Shown here in pieces: positions 16,948-33,094 of a stretch of DNA of 64,000 nt (the stretch's first letter is position 1; every line of letters begins with the position of its first letter). The notes under the pieces are model-generated. The model had not been told where the DNA came from. It was given only the letters and a program-made list of their open reading frames with translations, and made no database searches. The stretch spans positions 80,201 to 144,200 of the forward strand of contig CAWJKV010000010.1 in the NCBI GenBank assembly GCA_963843555.1, given 5' to 3'. Source of the stretch: an uncultured Methanosarcinales archaeon. Its GTDB lineage: Archaea > Halobacteriota > Methanosarcinia > Methanotrichales > Methanotrichaceae. Both the position numbers and the translations under genes were made by a program.

Positions 16948-18349
16948 ATGAATGACAAACGGATTGTGCTCGTCATCACCTGCATGGCTTCTTTTATTAC
17001 GCCGTTTTTGGCCTCGTCCGTGAATGTCGCCCTCCCCACCATAAACAATGATTTCACATGTCCCGGACCAGGCGCTCCTGGGATGGATAGTCACAGGTTT
17101 CCTGCTTTCGGCGGCGATTTTTGTCGTGCCTTTCGGCCGAATAGCAGATATTTATGGAAGAAAGAAGATTTTTGTGATGGGCCTATCGATCATTGCTGTA
17201 TCATCGCTCTTTTGCGGCATCTCCAATAGCGTGCAGATGCTTATCGGCTCGCGCGTGGTGGAAGGCCTGGGCAGTGCCATGATCTTCGGGACATCCATTG
17301 CCATTCTAACCTCAGTCTTCCCGGCACAGGAAAGGGGCAAGGTGCTGGGCATCAACGTGGCCATCGTATATTTGGGTCTCTCCATGGGGCCGCTCCTGGG
17401 GGGCATCATCACTGCATACGCAGGATGGAGGTTCATCTATGCCGGGATCACGATCTACGCTTTGCTGGCGGCGCTCCTGGCGCAGAGGATGATCAACTGC
17501 GAATGGCGTTGCGCTCAAGAGGGGCGGTTCGACATCTTCGGGACAATCCTTTATGCAGCAATGCTCTCTGCTCTCATGTACGGGCTGGCGCTGATCCCGG
17601 ATGTAAAGGGGGCCTATTTGCTGGGGCTTGCCCTGGCTATAATGGCCGTTTTCTTCCGGTGGGAGCTCAGAAATGAGAATCCCGTCCTGAAGATCAGCGT
17701 CTTTCGTAATAATACCGTATTCCTGTTCTCGAACCTGGCTGCCCTGATCAACTACAGTGCCACGGCCGCCCTTGCATTTCTGTTGAGCCTTTACCTGCAG
17801 TACATGAAGGGCTACGGCCCCGAAGTGACCGGTCTGATTCTGATCGCTCAACCAATAGTGCAGGCGGCCCTCTCCCCACTGGCAGGAAGGCTGTCGGACA
17901 GAGTGGAACCGAGGATCGTGGCCTCCGTTGGAATGGGCCTTTGCGTGGTCGGGCTCACCCTCTTTGCCTTTCTGACGCCGCAGACCCCCATTGAGACCAT
18001 CCTCATCAGCCTGGTCTTCATGGGCCTGGGATTTGCCTTCTTCTCGTCGCCCAACGTAAACGCCATCATGAGCTCTGTTGATAAGTGCGACTTTGGCGTT
18101 GCCTCCGGGATGGTGAGCACCATGCGGCTGATCGGACAGCTGATGAGCCTGGGCATTACCATGCTCATCTTCTCGGTGATCATGGGACATGTGGAGATTG
18201 CGCCCGGGCAGATGGACATGCTCATGGTCAGCATCAAGCTGTCTTTTGGGGTCTTTGCCGGCCTATGCGTTCTGGGCACGATCTTCTCTCTGGCCAGGGG
18301 AAACCTGGGAAGGGATGTGGAGATTGCGGCGGGGCAGCCTGGGAAATAA
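16948..18349 (+). CDS. MFS drug-resistance transporter (DHA2/EmrB-like), apparent +1 frameshift at ~17055
   Basis: N-terminus SFITPFLASSVNVALPTI lies in one frame; GRIADIYGRKK, ERGKVLG and GRLSDRVEPR lie in the next. Confidence 0.9.
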
Positions 18350-18386
18350 ACTCAGGAAAATTTTCCAAAGAGATTTCGAATACCCT

Positions 18387-18746
18387 TCACAGAACGCATT
18401 CGCTGCAGTCCTGGCAGCTGCACTCGATGTTTGTGATCTTCCACTTGAGTGCCCATCGCTTCATATCTTTGACGATATCGATGATCTCAAGGCCGCTTTC
18501 CGTCAGCGTATATTCGCTTTTCACAGGGAAGGAAGTGCTGTCCACTCTGTTCTCGACGAGCCCTTCCTTCTCCAGTTCCTTCAGCCGGGCCGAGAGAACC
18601 TTCTGAGTGATGCCGTCCAGGCAGCTCTTCAGCTCTGAAAAGCGCCTGGTGTGCCCGGCACCTTTATAGAGCTCGAGGAGTATGAGAAGGGTCCATTTTC
18701 TGGAGATATACTTCACAGTCAGGTTTACAGTGCATCCTTCCTGCAT
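18387..18746 (-). CDS. HxlR-family winged-helix transcription regulator
   Basis: GCTV...ISRKWTLLIL, RRFSELK...GITQKVLSARLKELEKEGLV and EYTLTESG. Confidence 0.93.
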   Translation of the reverse strand: MQEGCTVNLTVKYISRKWTLLILLELYKGAGHTRRFSELKSCLDGITQKVLSARLKELEKEGLVENRVDSTSFPVKSEYTLTESGLEIIDIVKDMKRWALKWKITNIECSCQDCSECVL

Positions 18747-18800
18747 GGTATACTTGTGGAAACTTTCTAGGCTATATACTTTAGTATCATAAGTATACTG
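18747..18800. promoter_or_regulatory. Divergent hxlR/hcp promoter region with GTATAC-type palindromes (motif copy 2 at 18747-18763)
   Basis: GGTATACTTGTGGAAAC abuts the hxlR start codon. ATACTTTAGTAT and AGTATCATAAGTATACT overlap the TATA-like TATATA. Confidence 0.5.
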
Positions 18801-18837
18801 TGAAGTAGAGTGTACTATGAAGTTGAGGTAATTAAAA

Positions 18838-20148
18838 ATGGCAGCTATTGAGAAACCCGATATGTTCTGCTACCAGTGCTCCCAGACCGCCGGGGGCACA
18901 GGCTGCACAATTAAAGGAGTCTGTGGGAAGGAAGCGATTGTGGCACGTCTGCAGGATAACCTGCTCTTCGCCATCAAAGGCATCAGCGCTTATCTTTACC
19001 ATGCGCGTGAGCTCGGCTATACCGATCCCGAGATAGATGCCTTCATCGAGAGAGGGTTCTTCTCCACATTGACAAATGTCAACTTCGATCCGCAAGAGTT
19101 CCTGCGACTGGCCGTTAGGGCTGGCGAGATGAACATCAAGACCATGCAGCTTCTCAAGAAAGCCCACATAGAGACCTTCGGCGAGCCGACACCGACTAAG
19201 GTGAAGACGGGAACCGTCCGGGGTCACGGCATCCTCGTCACGGGCCACGATATGCATGCTCTCCACGAGCTGCTCCGCCAGGTAGAGGGCACGGACGTCT
19301 TTGTCTACACCCACTCCGAGATGCTGCCTGCTCACGGCTATCCGGGTCTACGCAAGTACAAGAACCTGGCCGGCAACCTGGGTAAGGCCTGGTTCGACCA
19401 GCGCCAGCTCTTTGCCAAATATCCCATGGCCATCCTGGGTACATCCAACTGTTTCCTCATCCCCAGGGAAGAGTACAGGGATCGCATGTTTGCTGCGGGG
19501 CCCGTTTACCTGCCGGGAGTAAAGCATATCGATGGCTACGACTACTCGGAGGTAATCGCTAAGGCCCGAACGCTTCCGGAGTTGCCGGACGCGCCCGGAG
19601 AGTACGAGCTTACCACTGGCTTTTCCACCGCTGTCTTGCTGGGCCATGCTGCCAAGATCAAGCAGCTCGTCCAGGAGGGAAAGATCAAGCGGTTCTTCCT
19701 GGTGGGCGGATGTGATGCGCCCCTGAAGAAGTCTGACTACTATCGCGAATTCGTGCAAAAGCTTCCCAAGGATGCTGTCGTCCTCACACTGGCCTGCGGA
19801 AAATACCGCTTCAATGACCTGGATCTGGGCGATATCGAAGGCATTCCCCGTTTGATCGACCTGGGACAGTGCAACGATGCTATTGTGGCCCTGGAAGTGG
19901 CTCAAGCACTGGCTGGACTCTTCGGTGTGGGAGTGAACGACCTGCCCCTGACACTGGTGGTCAGCTGGATGGAGCAGAAGGCGGTGGCCATCCTCTGGTC
20001 TCTCCTGGCTCTGGGGATCAAGGGCATTTACCTGGGCCCTATTGTGCCCGGTTGGATCAATGAGGATATGCTGAAGATCCTGGTGGAGCAGTACGACATC
20101 CGGCTGATCAGCACACCGGATGAAGATATCAAGAAGATGATGGGTTAG
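18838..20148 (+). CDS. hcp: Hybrid cluster protein (hydroxylamine reductase), short form
   Basis: [56 protein letters not shown] and SWMEQKA. Confidence 0.96.
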
Positions 20149-25122: not shown

Positions 25123-26706
25123 ATGCTCATGAAGGTTCTTGTCAGTGATTCTTTAGCAGAAGAAGGAGTAAAGAGGCTGGAGTCGGGAGCCGACGTTGAT
25201 GTTATCACCAACCTCTCTCCTGAAGAGCTCATCCAGAAGATTGGAGAATACGATGCCCTGGTCATCCGCAGCGGGACGAAGGTAACGGCTGACGTCATCA
25301 AAGCCGCAGACCGGCTCAAAGTCATCGGCAGAGCTGGTGTAGGCATCGACAACGTGGATGTGGAGGCCGCCACCAAGAAAGGCATCATCGTGCTGAATAC
25401 GCCCGGCGGAAACACCATCTCCGCCGCCGAGCACACCATCGCCATGATGCTGGCCCTGGCCAGGAACATCCCTCAGGCCAATGCTGCGCTGCATAAGGGC
25501 GAATGGAACCGCAAGAAGTACACAGGTGTCGAGTTCTTCAACAAGACCCTGGGCATCGTGGGCCTGGGCCGGGTGGGAGCCGAGGTGGCCTCCCGCATGA
25601 AGTCCTTCGGCATGCAGATCGTAGCATACGACCCCTTTGTTACCGAAGAGCGGGCCCAGCAGATGGGCCTGACTCTCGCGCCGCTGGAGACTGTGCTGCG
25701 AGAAGGCGACTTCATCACTGTGCATACGCCCCTGACCAATGAGACCCGCAACTTGATCGATGAAGATGAGTTCAATATCATGAAGCCGGGCTGCCGCATT
25801 GTGAACTGCGCCCGCGGCGGAATAATAAACGAAGCTGCTCTGGCCAAAGCCGTAGCGGAAGGAAAGATTGCCGGAGCTGCGGTGGACGTCTTCACCAAAG
25901 AGCCTCCCACCGGAAATCCCTTGCTGGAGCAGGAGAAGGTAATAACCACACCACACCTGGGCGCCTCCACAGCCGAAGCGCAGGTCAACGTGGCTCTGGC
26001 TGTGGCCGACCAGATCCTCACTATCGCCAAAGGCGGCCTGCCCACCAATGCCATCAACATGCCTGCCATATCGCCTGAAACCCTGGCGGTCATGGAGCCT
26101 TTCATGGTATTGGCGGAAAAGATGGGCGCTCTTCTGGGCCAGCTAGTAGGCACCGGTTTCGAGGGCATGGAACTCATTTACAGCGGATCTGTGGCTGAGA
26201 AGGATATCCGGCCTGTGACCATATCTGCCATCAAAGGCCTCCTTGGTTGCCTGATGGGAGAGGGCAGCGTGAACTTCGTCAATGCCCAGAGGACGCTCAA
26301 GGAGATGGGCGTCAAGCTCCTGGAGAGCAAGACAGAGTCAGCTAATGGCTACAGCAATGCCATCACCATGAAGCTGACCAAGAACGGTGCGACGACTGTG
26401 CTGCAGGGCACTGTCTCCGGAAATAAGAAGAAGCAGATTGTGCAGCTCAACGATTACAAAACCTACATTCCCACCGAAGGGGACATGGTGATTGCCATCA
26501 TCGAGGACAAGCCCAATATCATCGGCCCGTGCTGCGTCGTCCTGGGTGAGGGCGAGATCAACATCGGCTCAATGCACGTTGGCCGCATAGATGAAGGTAT
26601 GCCGCAGCTCATGGTGCTGAGCGTGGACCACATGGTATCGGATGATATCATGAAGAAGCTTCTGGAAGTTCCGGGAGTGACGAGCGCCAAGATGGTAGAG
26701 CTTTAA
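25123..26706 (+). CDS. serA: D-3-phosphoglycerate dehydrogenase with C-terminal ACT domain
   Basis: RAGVGIDNVD, GLGRVG, NCARGG, TPHLGAST and DKPNIIG ACT region. Confidence 0.97.
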   Translation: MLMKVLVSDSLAEEGVKRLESGADVDVITNLSPEELIQKIGEYDALVIRSGTKVTADVIKAADRLKVIGRAGVGIDNVDVEAATKKGIIVLNTPGGNTISAAEHTIAMMLALARNIPQANAALHKGEWNRKKYTGVEFFNKTLGIVGLGRVGAEVASRMKSFGMQIVAYDPFVTEERAQQMGLTLAPLETVLREGDFITVHTPLTNETRNLIDEDEFNIMKPGCRIVNCARGGIINEAALAKAVAEGKIAGAAVDVFTKEPPTGNPLLEQEKVITTPHLGASTAEAQVNVALAVADQILTIAKGGLPTNAINMPAISPETLAVMEPFMVLAEKMGALLGQLVGTGFEGMELIYSGSVAEKDIRPVTISAIKGLLGCLMGEGSVNFVNAQRTLKEMGVKLLESKTESANGYSNAITMKLTKNGATTVLQGTVSGNKKKQIVQLNDYKTYIPTEGDMVIAIIEDKPNIIGPCCVVLGEGEINIGSMHVGRIDEGMPQLMVLSVDHMVSDDIMKKLLEVPGVTSAKMVEL

Positions 26707-26744
26707 AGCCCTATTATATAATTGGATCATCGAATCAGATTTGT

Positions 26745-26781
26745 TGGCAAGGGCAGGCGAGTTCCTGTCCGCCACTTTTTT
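26745..26781 (+). terminator. Hairpin plus T-tract after serA
   Basis: TGGC-AA-GGGCAGG-cgagtt-CCTGTCC-GCCA followed by CTTTTTT. Confidence 0.55.
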
Positions 26782-27211
26782 ATGGCCTTTGCCTTGAAGA
26801 TGCTCAAAATAGAATCCAGCACCAAGTTTCGGAAAAAGTGGTCAATCCGGACGATGATCTTGTCAAGGCTCGTTCCTTGCATATTGATTTATGAAATGGC
26901 ACAGAGTTTTGGCCTTGTTTTTATTTAAAAAAGTTTTATAATCAGGTGGAAAGGTACTTATAATAGAAAATCTTATATCTATAGGTACCTAAATTTAGGG
27001 GGTTCATTGATTATCATAGGCTATTGACACGTAATTTTGGTGCCACGCTATTAAAATAATAGCTATAAGATCGAATATCATTCAACTTATAGTTATCGTA
27101 TTCAATCAATGTGGTAATATATCGAGGATTTTGGTTAGCGACCGAAACAGTGCTTGAAGAAGGAAATAGCGATCGATTGATTCATATGATGATTATCGGC
27201 CTGAACAATGG

Positions 27212-28708
27212 GTGGGTATTTTGATCGTAACTGCTTCACGGTATAATATATTAGTCCCTCTTAAAAGTGGAGGTTGTCTTGCCTACAACTCACTGAATGG
27301 TGGCATGGCACTATGGGAACCGCACGATCTCGAGATATTTGAAAGCATTAGAAGAGGGGTCACGATAGGAGAGACTGATGCCTCTCTGAAGGATTTAATC
27401 AATGGCGGTTTTGCATTTCCGGGATACGTAGACGAAGTTGAGGTTCTCGATCAGCAATACCGCAAGCATCGATTCGATCGCAGCACCATGATCCTCACCA
27501 TCGCCCCTACCGTTGGATGCAACTTTGGTTGTGATTACTGCTTCCAGGGTGAGAAAAAGAATGATGAATCAATGAGCAAAGATATACAGAATCGAATTGT
27601 TGGCCTTATAAAACGTGTATCCCCTGGGCTGAAGCGACTGCATGTGGCCTGGTATGGAGGCGAACCTCTGCTCAGGCTGAAGATAATCGAGAATCTGTCC
27701 GACCATTTCATCTCTTTTTGCGACGGTCACGCCATCCAATACGACTCAATGATGGTCACCAATGGATATCTTCTTCGCCCGAACGTGGCCAGATCTCTTC
27801 ATGTTCACCGGGTAAAGACGGTTCAGATCACCCTGGACGGACAGCAGATCTATCATGACTCCCGCAGGCCTCTGCTCTCAGGCGGGCCGACCTTTGATCA
27901 TATATTAAAGAATATTAAATCGGTAGTGGATGAGGTCCCCATCAATTTCAGCATCCGGGTGAACATCGATTCTCGCAACGTCGCAGGAATCCACGGGCTT
28001 ATCGAGAACCTGGCAGAGATGGGCCTGGGTAACAAGAGAAATTTTAAACTATATTTTGCACCCATAGAGGCGACAACTGAGGCATGTCATAGCATCGCCG
28101 GGGCATGTATGCCCAAGGGGGAATACGGCGCTCTGGAGGCCGACTTATACCGGCTCGGGTTCGAATCAGGTCTCACAGTTCTCCCCTATCCACCAAGGTT
28201 CAGAGGGAGCTGCGGGGCAGTCCGCCCCACGGGTCTGGTGCTGCTTCCTAATGGAGATATTCATAAGTGCTGGCACGCTGCAACAATCAAGGAAAGGCGT
28301 GTAGGTACCCTCTTTGATCTTGATGCTCTTAATCAGGATCAATTGCTGCGAGAGTGGCTGTTATGGAATCCTTTTGAGATCAGTGGTTGTCGGAACTGCA
28401 AAATCCTTCCCAATTGTGCAGGTGGCTGCGGGTATAAATTCCTTTATTCTGAGGATTCCAAGGGAGAAGGGGCAACTCTCCCGTGTATCAGCTGGAAGTA
28501 CAACATCAATGAGATGTTGATCCTCAGAGCAATAAAATTGGGAATTATTAATGCGGATGATTATGATCCGGCAGCCATAGCGACCGATGAATCGATGCTG
28601 CAAGTGGATCTGGAGCATTGCAGATCACTGATAACAACTGACCCAGAGTCAACGGCAACCTGCAATTTGGTGTCTGAATCAGAATGTGAAACTGTATCTC
28701 AGGTATGA
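27212..28708 (+). CDS. Radical SAM/SPASM domain peptide/protein maturase
   Basis: CNFGCDYC (CxxxCxxC), WYGGEPLL, TNGY and QITLDG. SPASM cysteines CGA...PNGDIHKC...CRNCKILPNCAGGC...C. N-terminal SRYN...AYNS...L..GF extension resembles an RRE. Confidence 0.92.
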   Translation: MGILIVTASRYNILVPLKSGGCLAYNSLNGGMALWEPHDLEIFESIRRGVTIGETDASLKDLINGGFAFPGYVDEVEVLDQQYRKHRFDRSTMILTIAPTVGCNFGCDYCFQGEKKNDESMSKDIQNRIVGLIKRVSPGLKRLHVAWYGGEPLLRLKIIENLSDHFISFCDGHAIQYDSMMVTNGYLLRPNVARSLHVHRVKTVQITLDGQQIYHDSRRPLLSGGPTFDHILKNIKSVVDEVPINFSIRVNIDSRNVAGIHGLIENLAEMGLGNKRNFKLYFAPIEATTEACHSIAGACMPKGEYGALEADLYRLGFESGLTVLPYPPRFRGSCGAVRPTGLVLLPNGDIHKCWHAATIKERRVGTLFDLDALNQDQLLREWLLWNPFEISGCRNCKILPNCAGGCGYKFLYSEDSKGEGATLPCISWKYNINEMLILRAIKLGIINADDYDPAAIATDESMLQVDLEHCRSLITTDPESTATCNLVSESECETVSQV

Positions 28709-28744
28709 TTCGTTTTATCAAAAATCTGAAAGAGGTGGAAAGAA

Positions 28745-29806
28745 ATGAAATATATTACGCAGCCTGTAATAGACGGTGCGACAAATTTCCCTGGACAGAA
28801 TGCCCAGAAGATGTACTCCGTGACATGCGTCAATAGTGGATTGGTGGCAAGCCTTAACGGCAATGCTGTGGAGCTGGTCCAGAAGAACTGGAAAGAAGAC
28901 CCGACTCAGCAGTGGAGGTTCGAGCCTCTATCAGGGCAAAACAGCGGCTACTATCGAATTGTCTCTATGGTGAACGGAAAAGTATTGAGCCTGCAAGGAG
29001 AAACAGACGTCATCGTTGATGCCTGGAAGGATGCTCCCTTGGGTCAATGGAAATTGATCAACCTGGGATATGGCAAGTTCAGGATAGAATCCAGGGCGAA
29101 TGGGGGAATTCTGGATGTCATGGGCTCATCCATGAGTGAGGGGGCAAAGATCAATCTTTATAAACCTGTGGCCAAGACCACCCTGAAGGCTGCCATCTAT
29201 GAGCACGCAAACTATCAAGGTCGAAGCCAGGAGCTGGGCCTGGGAAAATATGACATCAATCATCTCACGATAGGCAATGACGTTCTGAGTTCTCTCAAGG
29301 TGCCAAAAGGGTTAAAGGTCACCCTTTACGAGCACGCCGGCTTCCAGGGAAGGATCAAGAGCTTCACAGCGGATACCGCTTATGTGGGCAACGATTTCAA
29401 TGACATAACCTCGTCGATCGTGGTCGAAGAAGACGGAAAAAGCGTTACCATATATGAGCACGCCAATTATCAGGGAAGAAGTCAGATGCTGGGCGTCGGA
29501 AAGCATGATATGGGCAGTCTCTTCGCAAACGACATTTTGAGCTCCTTGAAAGTGCCCACCGGTTTCGTCGTCACGATCTTTGAGCATGCCGGCTTCCAGG
29601 GAAGGAGTAAGAGCTTCACGGCGGATACCGCTTATGTGGGCAACGATTTCAATGACATAACCTCCTCCATAGTTGTCGACTATAAAGAGGGCACCAGCCT
29701 CAGCCAGCAATGGATGCTTGCGGATATTGTTGTTAATAAACTAGAATCCACATACAACAAAAGCGCAATCATTTATGAACATGCAGTTAGTTCTATGTCG
29801 TGCTGA
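28745..29806 (+). CDS. Ricin-B lectin / beta-gamma-crystallin multidomain protein, apparently C-terminally truncated
   Basis: QxW repeats QQWRF, GQWKL and QQWML. Four Greek-key motifs (YEHANYQG...NDVLSSLKV; YEHAGFQG...NDITSSIVV, twice). A further domain starts with SAIIYEHA and breaks off. Confidence 0.88.
   Translation: MKYITQPVIDGATNFPGQNAQKMYSVTCVNSGLVASLNGNAVELVQKNWKEDPTQQWRFEPLSGQNSGYYRIVSMVNGKVLSLQGETDVIVDAWKDAPLGQWKLINLGYGKFRIESRANGGILDVMGSSMSEGAKINLYKPVAKTTLKAAIYEHANYQGRSQELGLGKYDINHLTIGNDVLSSLKVPKGLKVTLYEHAGFQGRIKSFTADTAYVGNDFNDITSSIVVEEDGKSVTIYEHANYQGRSQMLGVGKHDMGSLFANDILSSLKVPTGFVVTIFEHAGFQGRSKSFTADTAYVGNDFNDITSSIVVDYKEGTSLSQQWMLADIVVNKLESTYNKSAIIYEHAVSSMSC
29195..29680 (+). repeat. 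Internal tandem duplication of the crystallin domain (period about 252-255 nt)
   Basis: GCCGGCTTCCAGGGAAGGA..AAGAGCTTCAC.GCGGATACCGCTTATGTGGGCAACGATTTCAATGACATAACCTC occurs at ~29336 and ~29588. Confidence 0.9.
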
Positions 29807-30732
29807 CATCGTTCCGAAATTTTGAGACTCTGCTGCCAAAGCTGGAAAGTGATCCCGTGAAGAACGGCATCAAGATATTCTATGAGGTAAAGACCAATCT
29901 CAATCGTCACCAGATCAAGGCTCTGGCGGATGCAGGCATCATTTACCTGCAGCCCGGGATTGAAAGCCTTTCCACTCACCTGTTGCAGCTCATGGGCAAA
30001 GGAACCACTACCATTCAGAACCTCTCTTTCTTGAAATGTTGCCGTGACTATGGAATTTTTGTCTTCTGGAATAACCTCATTCGTCTGCCTGGAGAGAAGG
30101 AAGGGGACTATTTGGAGATGGAGGACTTGATACCGAAGATACATCATCTCTACCCACCAAGCGGAGGCGCAAAAAAGGTCGAATGCCATCGTTTCAGTCC
30201 TTACTTCTCAGGAAGGGCGAAGGGAGCGGAGAATCCACGGCCTCTATCCTGGTACTCTGCCCTTTATCCTGAAGGAAAAATTGACCAAAATCGGGTTGCT
30301 TACTACTTCGATGCCGATTGGACGAATACATTAGGGGATGATGCCTATGAGAGCGTAATCTCAAAGACCGGAGAATGGCTCCAAATCTGGCAAAAGGAGA
30401 TGTTTTTGCCGGAATTGAGGTATCAACTTCAGGCGGACGGAAGTGCAATAGTACTCGATACCAGACAAGGCAATCCCAAAGAAATCAAGTTCGATATTCC
30501 TGAGGCTGGTGTTCTTCAGGCCATCGAGGAACCGGCGAATATTGATACAATCAGCCGAACCTTAGGAGATAGAGCACTTTCAAAAGATGCCGTCGAGGAT
30601 ATCTTGCAGGGTTTCATCGAGTCCAACCTGGCATTTAAAGAGAGGGGGAGATATCTGGGCCTCGCTCTTAAGCATAATGCTAAAGACCTTCCCCATTCCC
30701 TGCGCTGCGGCTTTCTTCCTCAGGAGTATTAG
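29790..30732 (+). pseudogene. C-terminal half of a B12-type RiPP maturation radical SAM enzyme (TIGR03975-like)
   Basis: FETLLPKL, FYEVKTNL, QPGIESLSTHLLQLMGKG, QNL..LK, WN.L...PGE, RFSPYF and AYYFD. No B12-binding domain or Fe-S-binding Cys motif present. Confidence 0.8.
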
Positions 30733-32198
30733 TTGCCCCTAAGAGGTTCGGAAATCTTTGTGCATCTCCCCAATGCTATCACTGCCCCAGTGCCAGCCTT
30801 TCCCAGCTCCTCGCGCAGCACCTGTTCCAACTCCTCCTCTGCCACGGGAAGCCCCAGCAAGCGCGTCGGCGCCAGCACCTCCAAAAGGGCAATGAGATCG
30901 GGCGCTTCCTGGCCGCCGGTCATGGCAGCCACCTCGTTCTTAAGCACGATTACCAGAACCTCTCGTTTCTGCCAGACGGCATTGATCAGGGCCTGCAAAC
31001 CCGAATGCGCCAGAGCATAGTCCCCTATAATGGCGATGCCTTTTTTCCGGAAACCTGAGGCCACGCCTATAGAAGAGCCCAGACCGTAGACCACATCCAC
31101 CGATTCGTAGGGCTCTCTTGTGGCGTGAATGGAACATCCCGCATCCCCGGCCACAGCCACATCCAAATTTTTCAGTGCTCGGAAGAGGGGAATAAAGGGG
31201 CAATCCGGGCAGACACCAGCATAGCCGCGCTCCGCCACTGTCTCATAAGCCTGCAGGCCCTTTTCCGGCTCTTCGTCCAGATTCTTCAGAGCCTGCACGA
31301 TATCCGCTTTCTCTACGAGCCCCCGGGGCAGGTGGCCGGTGAGCTTGCCCAACACTTTGGGGCTCATGCCGAGCTGTGACTCGATGAAAGGCTCCGGTTC
31401 CTCTGCGACCAGGATCAAGCGATGGTCCTCGATGAAGCGGCTGAGCATCTTTCGAGGCAGCGGATTGGTGTAGGCTATAGAAAGAAGTGAGACCCCCAAT
31501 TCCTCCGCCAGCGCGGCAGGAAAGCCGCTGGCGATGATTCCTACCTTTTGAGGATTTTCATCCCTGCAGACCTGCATCCGGTTCAGGTTAGTGGACTCGC
31601 TGGCCACTTCTGCCTTGACCAGGATCTGATCATGATGCCTCTGGTGGCGGCCCTGCATGGTAAGCTCCGGGCACGCCTTCTCAAAGGCCTGGCCCGTTCC
31701 GGGAGAAGGCCGCGGCTGAATTGGAGGGCCCTCCATAGACAGAAGGCGTGGCGTGACCCGGACGATGACCGGTATTCTGAGCGGCTCGGAAAGGGCGTAG
31801 GCCTCAAGGATAGAGGCATGAAGGTGCCCAGGAGATCTGGGATCAAGCACCGGCAGTTCGGCCAACGGTCCATAGAATCGGCTGTCCATCTCTGCCTGGG
31901 AGCGCCTGGGCCCCAGATCGTCGCCCGCAATTATAACCAGACCGGAACCAATGGTGTGCGTGGCCGAGATCACCATCGGGTCGGCGAGATTGTTCATGCC
32001 TACCTGCTTGACCAGGACCATGGAACGCAGGCCCGTCGCCGAACCGCCCAGAGCAATCTCCAGGGCTACCTTCTCATTTACTGAGATTTCCGCCTTCAGC
32101 GCTGCAGCGAGATCGGTTATGGGATAGCCGGGAACGTAGGTCCGAACCTTCGCCCCGGCATCATCTGCGGCTAAGAGTACGGCATCCTGACCGTTCAT
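30729..32198 (-). CDS. IorA-like thiamine-pyrophosphate-dependent 2-oxoacid oxidoreductase alpha homolog
   Basis: NEKVALEIALG, KQVGMN, SQAEMDSR, CPDCP, DAGC and IGD...HSG...N...AMTGGQ. Confidence 0.85.
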   Translation of the reverse strand: MNGQDAVLLAADDAGAKVRTYVPGYPITDLAAALKAEISVNEKVALEIALGGSATGLRSMVLVKQVGMNNLADPMVISATHTIGSGLVIIAGDDLGPRRSQAEMDSRFYGPLAELPVLDPRSPGHLHASILEAYALSEPLRIPVIVRVTPRLLSMEGPPIQPRPSPGTGQAFEKACPELTMQGRHQRHHDQILVKAEVASESTNLNRMQVCRDENPQKVGIIASGFPAALAEELGVSLLSIAYTNPLPRKMLSRFIEDHRLILVAEEPEPFIESQLGMSPKVLGKLTGHLPRGLVEKADIVQALKNLDEEPEKGLQAYETVAERGYAGVCPDCPFIPLFRALKNLDVAVAGDAGCSIHATREPYESVDVVYGLGSSIGVASGFRKKGIAIIGDYALAHSGLQALINAVWQKREVLVIVLKNEVAAMTGGQEAPDLIALLEVLAPTRLLGLPVAEEELEQVLREELGKAGTGAVIALGRCTKISEPLRGN

Positions 32199-33094
32199 GG
32201 CATCCCGGGAACGATTGCATCATCCGGCCGGGCACAGAAGGGCAATGCCGCTACGGCTCCAATCAGCCCCTGACCGTTCATGAGAATCTGCACGCCCGCC
32301 TCGCCCGCGGCTTGCAGAGCATCCTCGTACTGCACTCTCTCCATCTTGCATCTCTGGCCAAAGGGCAGGAGCTCGGAGGGATCAAAATCCCTGAAGACGG
32401 CCATGCCCGTCTGCTCCGAGACGGAGTACTTGCGGAGCATTGCCTTGAAGTCGGAGAGCATGCCTTCTCCTCTTCCGGGCAGGCAGGCGAACTCCACCAC
32501 TGTTGAGACGCAGTTCTGGGTCTTGGTGGGCACAGGAAAGAGCTGCACCAGGGAATGTGAGAGGTAGCGCGCCTCGGGGCGATCGACTTTGCTCGATATA
32601 TTGTGAATCAAGGACCATGTCGCTCCCAGGGTCTTGGAGTCTGTATCATCCACACCGATGATCAATCTCTCTCTCCTGGGCAGGACTATGGTGCCCCGGG
32701 CGACGCGACCGCCACCGCATTCTGTTACATCATAGCGCAGGACATCGTCCGCCTTTGCCCTGGAGAGGGTAGCTCCCACGCCCCCGCCACCCAGGCCCGC
32801 ATAAGTCACCTCCACTTCCGGACCCAGCACCCTGACCGACTCTATTCCAGCAGATCTCCTGGAGGAGGCCAGATCCAGGTCGGCCTCGCCGGGCGAGATC
32901 ATGTAGCGGAACCATTCACCCAGGTTGCGTGAGCTCTGAACCAGGGGTCCCTTAGAGTAATGGTATCTGGCCCAGGCTGAGCCGCCGTAGCAGCTGGAGC
33001 GCTCCATGAGCTCAACATGTTTCTCCGCCGGATCAACTACGGCATGGATCTGCTTGTAGACCACCACATATGGATCTTCTAATTCTAGTTGCAC
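32195..33094 (-). CDS. mmp11: Methanogenesis marker protein 11 (TIGR03280-like)
   Basis: DPYVVVYKQI, CYGGSAW, SAGIE, YAGLGGGGVGA, IGVDDTDS..GATW and VQLFPVPTKTQNC. Confidence 0.85.
   Translation of the reverse strand: MQLELEDPYVVVYKQIHAVVDPAEKHVELMERSSCYGGSAWARYHYSKGPLVQSSRNLGEWFRYMISPGEADLDLASSRRSAGIESVRVLGPEVEVTYAGLGGGGVGATLSRAKADDVLRYDVTECGGGRVARGTIVLPRRERLIIGVDDTDSKTLGATWSLIHNISSKVDRPEARYLSHSLVQLFPVPTKTQNCVSTVVEFACLPGRGEGMLSDFKAMLRKYSVSEQTGMAVFRDFDPSELLPFGQRCKMERVQYEDALQAAGEAGVQILMNGQGLIGAVAALPFCARPDDAIVPGMP

Follow-up and report, generated by a model that had tools for sequence, protein, structure and literature searches.

The DNA considered here is a 64,000-nucleotide stretch of an uncultured Methanosarcinales archaeon (assembly GCA_963843555.1, contig CAWJKV010000010.1, positions 80,201 to 144,200; the window), in which an island of three co-oriented open reading frames (ORFs) lies between serA and a convergent iorA-like gene. 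ORF1 encodes a radical SAM/SPASM maturase, ORF2 the front part of a lectin/crystallin protein (the carrier) and ORF3 the rear half of a radical SAM enzyme of the B12-dependent type. The island is very probably a broken copy, short of some 2.5 kb, of a three-gene cluster whose enzymes likely cross-link and C-methylate a carrier tail bearing cysteine at every fifth position.

The original prediction, made from the sequence alone, had placed three co-oriented ORFs here behind a long AT-rich leader and had reported no small precursor ORF, all of which agrees with the present analysis (Table 1). The leader has a G+C content of 35%, the island genes 48–49% and the serA and iorA flanks 57–59%, and no Cys-rich ORF of at least 20 amino acids (aa) occurs on the plus strand between serA and iorA. 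The surviving ORFs are free of frameshifts. No promoter was identified in the leader by a search restricted to sigma-70-type sites, which returned six sites against 6.5 expected by chance. Terminator-type sites were likewise about as frequent as chance predicts (four against 4.2), so that the one after serA is weak taken alone; a similar hairpin is also found 3' of serA in four of four relatives inspected.

In a profile scan ORF1 scored 554.3 bits against TIGR04463 (cut-off 525; model positions 1–438) and fell under the cut-off of all 24 other whole-enzyme families shown, the SPASM domain model excepted. It comprises a RiPP recognition element (RRE; RiPP, peptide made by the ribosome and modified post-translationally) at about residues 1–90, a CX3CX2C motif at 103–110, and SPASM cysteines at 334, 353, 393, 396, 402, 406 and 425; the ten radical SAM and SPASM cysteines are invariant across 57 aligned sequences. 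At the N-terminus the predicted structure (pLDDT, the predicted local distance difference test, 89) shows the three-strand, three-helix unit that is usual for RREs, and CteB and TigE are the structures it matches best. ORF1 is 94% identical to protein P0001, and its earlier description as an intact SPASM enzyme with an RRE-like N-terminus holds. A characterized member of the family, CrpC of Methanococcus voltae, is described as binding three 4Fe-4S clusters and installing thioether links, probably ranthionine, in the Cys-rich tail of the 298-aa protein CrpA, CAVD and CAGD being among the motifs modified (Dieter et al. 2026, PMC13692751).

ORF2 contains RicinB_lectin_2 and Crystall domains above the Pfam cut-offs. 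From its N-terminus it reads as an M-K-Y-I-x-Q-P motif, a ricin-B beta-trefoil, two beta/gamma-crystallin domains and the start of a third, six residues into which, after residue 347, it is broken; the last six residues and the stop codon are encoded by a 33-base filler. The domains proposed in the original prediction are thus present, while the protein is a fragment, corresponding to residues 1–356 (64% identity) of an 863-aa carrier in the metagenomic Methanothrix locus L029. It has two cysteines, one of them derived from the filler, and matches none of the families in the profile scan, the CefA precursor model NF038108 included. The ricin-B domain is the sugar-binding fold only, the toxin A-chain being absent. 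Four N-D-x-(I/L)-(S/T)-S motifs are present, which we take to resemble the crystallin motif that binds Ca2+.

ORF3 is, as had been suggested, half of a TIGR03975-like enzyme: it scores 261.9 bits (cut-off 281.85), covers model positions 324–606 only, and corresponds to residues 332–634 of the L029 ortholog. Its GTG start is supplied by the filler. Both the cluster motif Cx7Cx2C and the domain for B12 binding belong to the missing half, which was found nowhere else in the genome. Whole orthologs, with scores of 505–630 bits, possess both (the B12-binding domain under its Pfam cut-off). A 605-aa B12 enzyme, P0199, is 85% identical to ORF3, and a sequence search of the PDB with the whole enzyme gave no match at 1e-5.

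Table 1. Features of the island and its borders in the window
Feature	Position	Strand	Remarks
serA	25123-26706		left neighbour of the island
Terminator-like hairpin and T run after serA	26751..26782	+	left island edge
AT-rich leader	26783..27211	+	presumed promoter region; 35% GC
ORF1 (498 aa)	27212-28708	+	intact TIGR04463 radical SAM/SPASM maturase
ORF2 (353 aa)	28745-29806	+	5' part of carrier gene, 28745..29785, codons 1-347
Filler at the join (33 bases)	29785..29817	-	minus-strand reading R-N-D-V-S-T-T-stop
ORF3 (310 aa)	29800-30732	+	3' half of TIGR03975 gene, 29821..30732
iorA-like gene	30729-32198	-	convergent
iorA-like 3' end	30729..30803	-	right island edge; diverged from the iorA end of island-free relatives

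Whole clusters and their cysteine-rich carriers

Seventeen related loci were compared, 16 from genome contigs together with L029; the 18 other loci of the metagenome search were left out, and L087, which encodes the same proteins as L029, was not counted separately. A whole cluster, consisting of the SPASM enzyme, a crystallin carrier that bears a Cys-rich tail, and one complete TIGR03975 enzyme or more, is present in seven of them, and these are the loci whose SPASM enzyme has at least 52% identity. Three are from Methanothrix (L012, L018 and L029) and four from bacteria (L013–L016: Okeania, Eubacteriales, Acidimicrobiia, Polyangiaceae). The L013 carrier is split over two ORFs and that of L016 runs off its contig, L012 has two methyltransferases, and L029 has two carriers of 863 and 1213 aa. 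The neighbourhood comparison proposed with the original prediction finds the three genes recurring together, with Cys-rich tails on the carriers, and places a lectin/crystallin gene in the precursor position of the orthologous whole clusters.

Whole carriers range from about 475 to 1213 aa. In addition to ricin-B and/or crystallin domains they have a fascin/FRG1-like trefoil, and they bear a tail of 150–200 aa. The tail is composed of (A/D)-A-C-(G/A)-A pentads; 73% of 601 cases show cysteines spaced by five, and its end is almost invariably C-P-A-D-A-C-A-A-D-A-C-A-I-D-x-I-P-I-I-P-G-I. The residue three positions after cysteine (601 cysteines) is alanine in 38%, aspartate in 36%, asparagine in 9% and glutamate in 8%, a usage like that of the modified CAVD and CAGD motifs of CrpA. 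Some whole carriers are named CefA by NCBI, and five of ten scanned passed NF038108 (38–91 bits against 30). In the model of the 863-aa carrier residues 1–669 are well folded, residues 670–863 have a pLDDT below 50, and a flexible Gly/Ala linker joins the tail to the body. A likeness of the tail to a pentapeptide-repeat beta-helix was dropped, the tail model showing no confident fold.

Among 67 longer homologs of ORF2 the tail is present in 21, and the strict M-K-Y-L-V-Q-P-type N-terminal pattern was found in 14 of these 21 as against two of the 46 tail-less ones. Four near-identical relatives of ORF2 are short (61–288 aa), three of them ending in apparently out-of-frame tails, which may reflect either sequencing errors or decay. 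The second L029 carrier (L029:12997-16638) has a tryptophan-rich repeat region of about 300 aa ahead of its M-K-Y-L-V-Q-P motif, so that either the putative leader lies inside the protein or translation starts at an internal site. The likely substrate region is the Cys-rich tail rather than the lectin part, and the window copy lacks this tail.

At the remaining ten loci a Cys-rich ORF is adjacent to the enzyme (eight by script, L021 and L022 by eye), the tail being carried on B-lectin, metallophosphoesterase or no known domains; a B12 enzyme occurs at two of the ten. The TIGR04463-like loci of Bacteroidota (L017, L019, L021 and L026) have a B-lectin carrier of 307–326 aa (about 9000-9960 in L017, L019 and L026; 48-983 in L021), which gives a putidacin-L1-like match under the cut-off and bears a shorter Cys tail; four conserved enzyme-like genes come after it. 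L023:5016-7706 encodes an 896-aa carrier in which DUF7910 trefoil repeats and a metallophosphoesterase domain precede a CrpA-like Cys tail, that is, an enzyme as carrier. The distant SPASM enzymes L010:6621-7985 and L011:6996-8366 (36–37% identical) come from two genomes of another family of the class, and the 20 kb read there show no ORF with cysteine at every fifth position.

The join and the missing sequence

Aligned with L029, the carrier breaks off after 356 of its 863 residues, and ORF3 picks up at position 332 of the 634-residue enzyme, which leaves 2,527 bases missing. On the carrier side these would encode two crystallin domains, the fascin/FRG1-like trefoil and the entire tail; on the methyltransferase side, the B12 domain together with the Cx7Cx2C motif. 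The missing parts were not found elsewhere in the genome, where tblastn with the whole L029 carrier matched the window locus only. Close relatives are unbroken at this point: a contig of run X1 goes on past 29784 with in-frame crystallin sequence (A-N-Y-Q-G-R-S-Q) and P0199 is of full length. Another X1 contig has 38 unaligned bases ahead of 29819.

The filler bases belong to neither gene. Their minus-strand reading is in register with the iorA end of island-free genomes and shares its TAG-AAC; at three empty sites that end reads Q-D-A-D-T-A-stop or R-N-D-A-G-T-K-stop and stands directly against the serA terminator. The alignment scores of the filler with the three empty-site iorA ends (14, 17 and 16) were reached by none of 2938 random island 33-mers, and there was no match to G079 (score 6). 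Of 58 genomes of the genus, four have serA and iorA side by side on a single contig; of these four, G077, G030 and G027 are empty and G079 is occupied, its serA-iorA gap holding a 1.2-kb insert gene with a 278-aa membrane-like product. A contig of run X2 joins the serA end, the filler bases and iorA, and one of run X5 joins serA directly to iorA. Run X1 contains the island-type iorA end together with contigs that diverge at 30803-30837.

Two other sources of the filler were considered. It is not the end of an insertion sequence or another repeated element, being single-copy in window and genome and absent, at up to three mismatches, from the 58 other genomes of the genus, and a likeness to an integron or Xer site was abandoned because of the match to the iorA end. 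More generally the serA-iorA gap (window 26707-30803; L058–L061) is a variable site, runs X4 and X5 having other sequences after serA.

The order of left island part, iorA end of the empty allele and right island part makes the join a mosaic of both alleles. As to its cause, we lean towards an assembly consensus of mixed island-bearing and island-free strains; mixed alleles do occur in one sample, X1, and could mislead such a consensus. A true recombinant is a serious contender, though on balance we do not prefer it: a living strain would have recombined the two alleles, kept 33 bases of the iorA end and been left with a fresh pseudogene. This is consistent with an order collinear with both alleles, with the variability of the gap (another gene in G079, other sequences in X4 and X5) and with the intact reading frames that remain. 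It requires two illegitimate joins only 33 bases apart, and the surviving genes show no decay, as the near identity of ORF1 to P0001 illustrates; the mixed alleles in X1 also speak against it. The alternative concerns only the cause of the gap.

A proposed pathway and its precedents

In the whole clusters the enzyme's RRE would bind the conserved first residues of the carrier, some 670 residues away from the tail, by analogy with CrpC and CrpA. The 5'-deoxyadenosyl radical would then, again as in CrpC, take a hydrogen from the residue two to three positions after each cysteine, probably Asp, Asn or Ala, closing a thioether ring. The B12 enzyme may C-methylate tail residues, as its NCBIfam family name and the Cx7Cx2C motif that it shares with PoyB and PoyC suggest, and the product would remain a whole glycan- and Ca2+-binding protein with a stiffened tail. 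In the window, as the sequence is written, the tail is absent from the carrier and the cluster motif from the methyltransferase, so that the pathway would be dead. A predicted complex of the RRE (residues 1–92) with the first 34 residues of the carrier scored 0.04 against a mark of 0.32 and counts neither way.

Several points weigh against a broken cluster of this kind or against parts of the pathway. The evidence from X1 and X2 is one low-depth contig each, the join in the window is known from the assembly sequence, and the genome is 82% complete. The 2.5-kb figure rests on L029, the whole loci compared coming from strains of up to about 70% identity. The type of cross-link and the acceptor residues are assumed by analogy with CrpC, a sequence outside the present alignments. 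In the carrier's predicted fold the M-K-Y-L-V-Q-P-type motif makes up a strand and so may be structural rather than a leader. The first residues of CrpA and the RRE are described as raising processing without being required, and CrpA was modified once by CrpC with neither RRE nor leader (PMC13692751).

Taken together, the whole clusters would tentatively specify a 70–130 kDa glycan- and Ca2+-binding protein that is recognised through a short leader at its N-terminus, the core lying some 670 residues away. The pentad tail of this protein, carrying tens of thioether rings and C-methyls, might become a rigid stalk on the surface that binds metal or self-assembles; the clusters would constitute one conserved subfamily spanning myxobacteria, cyanobacteria, methanotrophs, clostridia and Methanothrix, the last having received it from bacteria. 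The surface role is a guess, no signal peptide having been seen by eye.

It is unlikely that the tail, once modified, is instead cleaved from the protein and set free as a methylated polycyclic peptide, with the lectin/crystallin portion serving only as a giant leader or delivery domain. The scores of half of the scanned carriers against a precursor-peptide model would suit such a release, as would the linker, the low confidence of the tail model and the fact that such tails are attached to many different domains at the N-terminal side. Against it, reading the long ORFs beside L012, L018 and L029 by eye revealed neither a protease nor a peptide exporter, and CrpA is handled as a modified whole protein (PMC13692751). 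Very improbable is an action of the intact SPASM enzyme in trans on another Cys-rich protein of the genome. ORF1 keeps all its cluster cysteines and part of the genome is missing; a six-frame scan, on the other hand, yielded six Cys-every-fifth runs, which are simple repeats in stop-to-stop frames of 59–91 aa and unlike the tail, and the tblastn search found no second carrier. A literal reading of the original prediction, with the 353-aa protein as a complete gene product modified on its folded domains, is scarcely credible: it is the island's only non-enzyme gene and ends in a stop codon, but it is a tail-less fragment with two cysteines, ORF3 is broken at the same point, and the tails on the carriers of all seven whole orthologous clusters effectively refute it.

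The broken-cluster reading has its nearest precedent in CrpC and CrpA. Here too a methanogen encodes a TIGR04463 enzyme with an RRE, a radical SAM domain and a seven-Cys SPASM domain, and the whole carriers, like CrpA, are large proteins with a C-terminal Cys-rich C-x-x-D-type repeat and a hydrophobic, Pro-containing end. CrpA differs from them in its smaller size and in having no lectin/crystallin domain, its row in the published table lists no B12 methyltransferase, whereas the whole clusters have an adjacent TIGR03975 gene, and the window copy differs from both systems in being broken, with no Cys-rich tail beside the enzyme. The claim that no archaeal cluster like this had been described does not stand. 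CrpABC has been described, and in the CrpA BLAST table (Supplemental Data set 1) the Methanothrix carrier RQW80219.1 appears, its neighbours including one TIGR04463 and two TIGR03975 proteins; three bacterial entries likewise have TIGR03975 next to them (PMC13692751). By eye, RQW80219.1 matches the L012 carrier over its first 400 residues and in length. Large-protein substrates, methanogens and the co-occurrence with TIGR03975 are thus already in print (Dieter et al. 2026, PMC13692751). The text and supplements examined of that paper make no mention of crystallin, ricin or lectin, and no description of the variant with lectin/crystallin carrier and methyltransferase was found in the open-licence literature.

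The "Cys-every-fifth" pair CefA/CefB (NF038108/NF038107) is related through the tails, those of five of the ten scanned carriers passing the CefA model, which ORF2 does not match; the maturase fails CefB (223 bits against a cut-off of 600), and the CefA model has 65 positions while the carriers are large multidomain proteins. Cx7Cx2C has been noted as an unusual motif of PoyB, PoyC and the bottromycin B12 radical SAM C-methyltransferases (PMC5682303). The ORF3 orthologs are likened to these by the motif and the B12-binding domain, not by sequence alignment, and differ in that the Poy and bottromycin enzymes act on peptide precursors. PoyC itself is presumably a TIGR03975 member. The closest PDB sequences to ORF2 are clostrillin, Myxococcus Protein S and ThreeFoil, the lectin side being of the ricin-B beta-trefoil kind; unlike microbial crystallins and ricin-B lectins, the carriers are fused to a Cys tail and predicted to be enzyme-modified, with Ca2+ and sugar binding predicted likewise.

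The whole clusters represent a conserved, uncharacterised variant with a lectin/crystallin carrier and a B12 methyltransferase. That RiPP-type enzymes can cross-link a large protein is known from CrpC (PMC13692751); carriers with recognisable lectin/crystallin domains and a second, methylating enzyme offer a testable route to function, and also one to B12 radical C-methylation of the tail of a folded protein. The clusters worth testing are the whole ones (L029, L018, L012), the window copy being unsuited. A cysteine-poor precursor beside half an enzyme is, as a caution, what a mosaic join in one assembly produced here.

Distribution, origin and neighbouring genes

Judged by its named nearest homologs, the organism is a Methanothrix-like methanogen. 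TIGR04463 was found above its cut-off in three of 105 genomes of the family, that of the window included; a further copy is divided between two contigs. A sample of 400 other genomes of the phylum, at most four candidates being scored per genome, yielded none. In a quick tree of 52 rows, whose backbone is unresolved and which left out CrpC and the partial enzyme of L018, the six rows with named Methanothrix enzymes form one group (Shimodaira-Hasegawa-like approximate likelihood ratio 95) among bacterial sequences. Transfer from bacteria is likely, donor and direction not being indicated by the tree. The horizontal acquisition proposed earlier is in keeping with the low G+C content, the empty site in close relatives and the few family genomes that carry the enzyme.

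A separate candidate RiPP pair occurs outside the window on contig C8 of genome G000 (17926-19594), where a 67-aa peptide with three terminal Cys-Cys pairs immediately precedes another SPASM enzyme, which has 25% identity to ORF1. At the right border of the island the iorA-like gene is short and under the TIGR03336 cut-off, and just upstream of it the window encodes methanogenesis marker protein 11 (32195-33094; TIGR03280, above cut-off).

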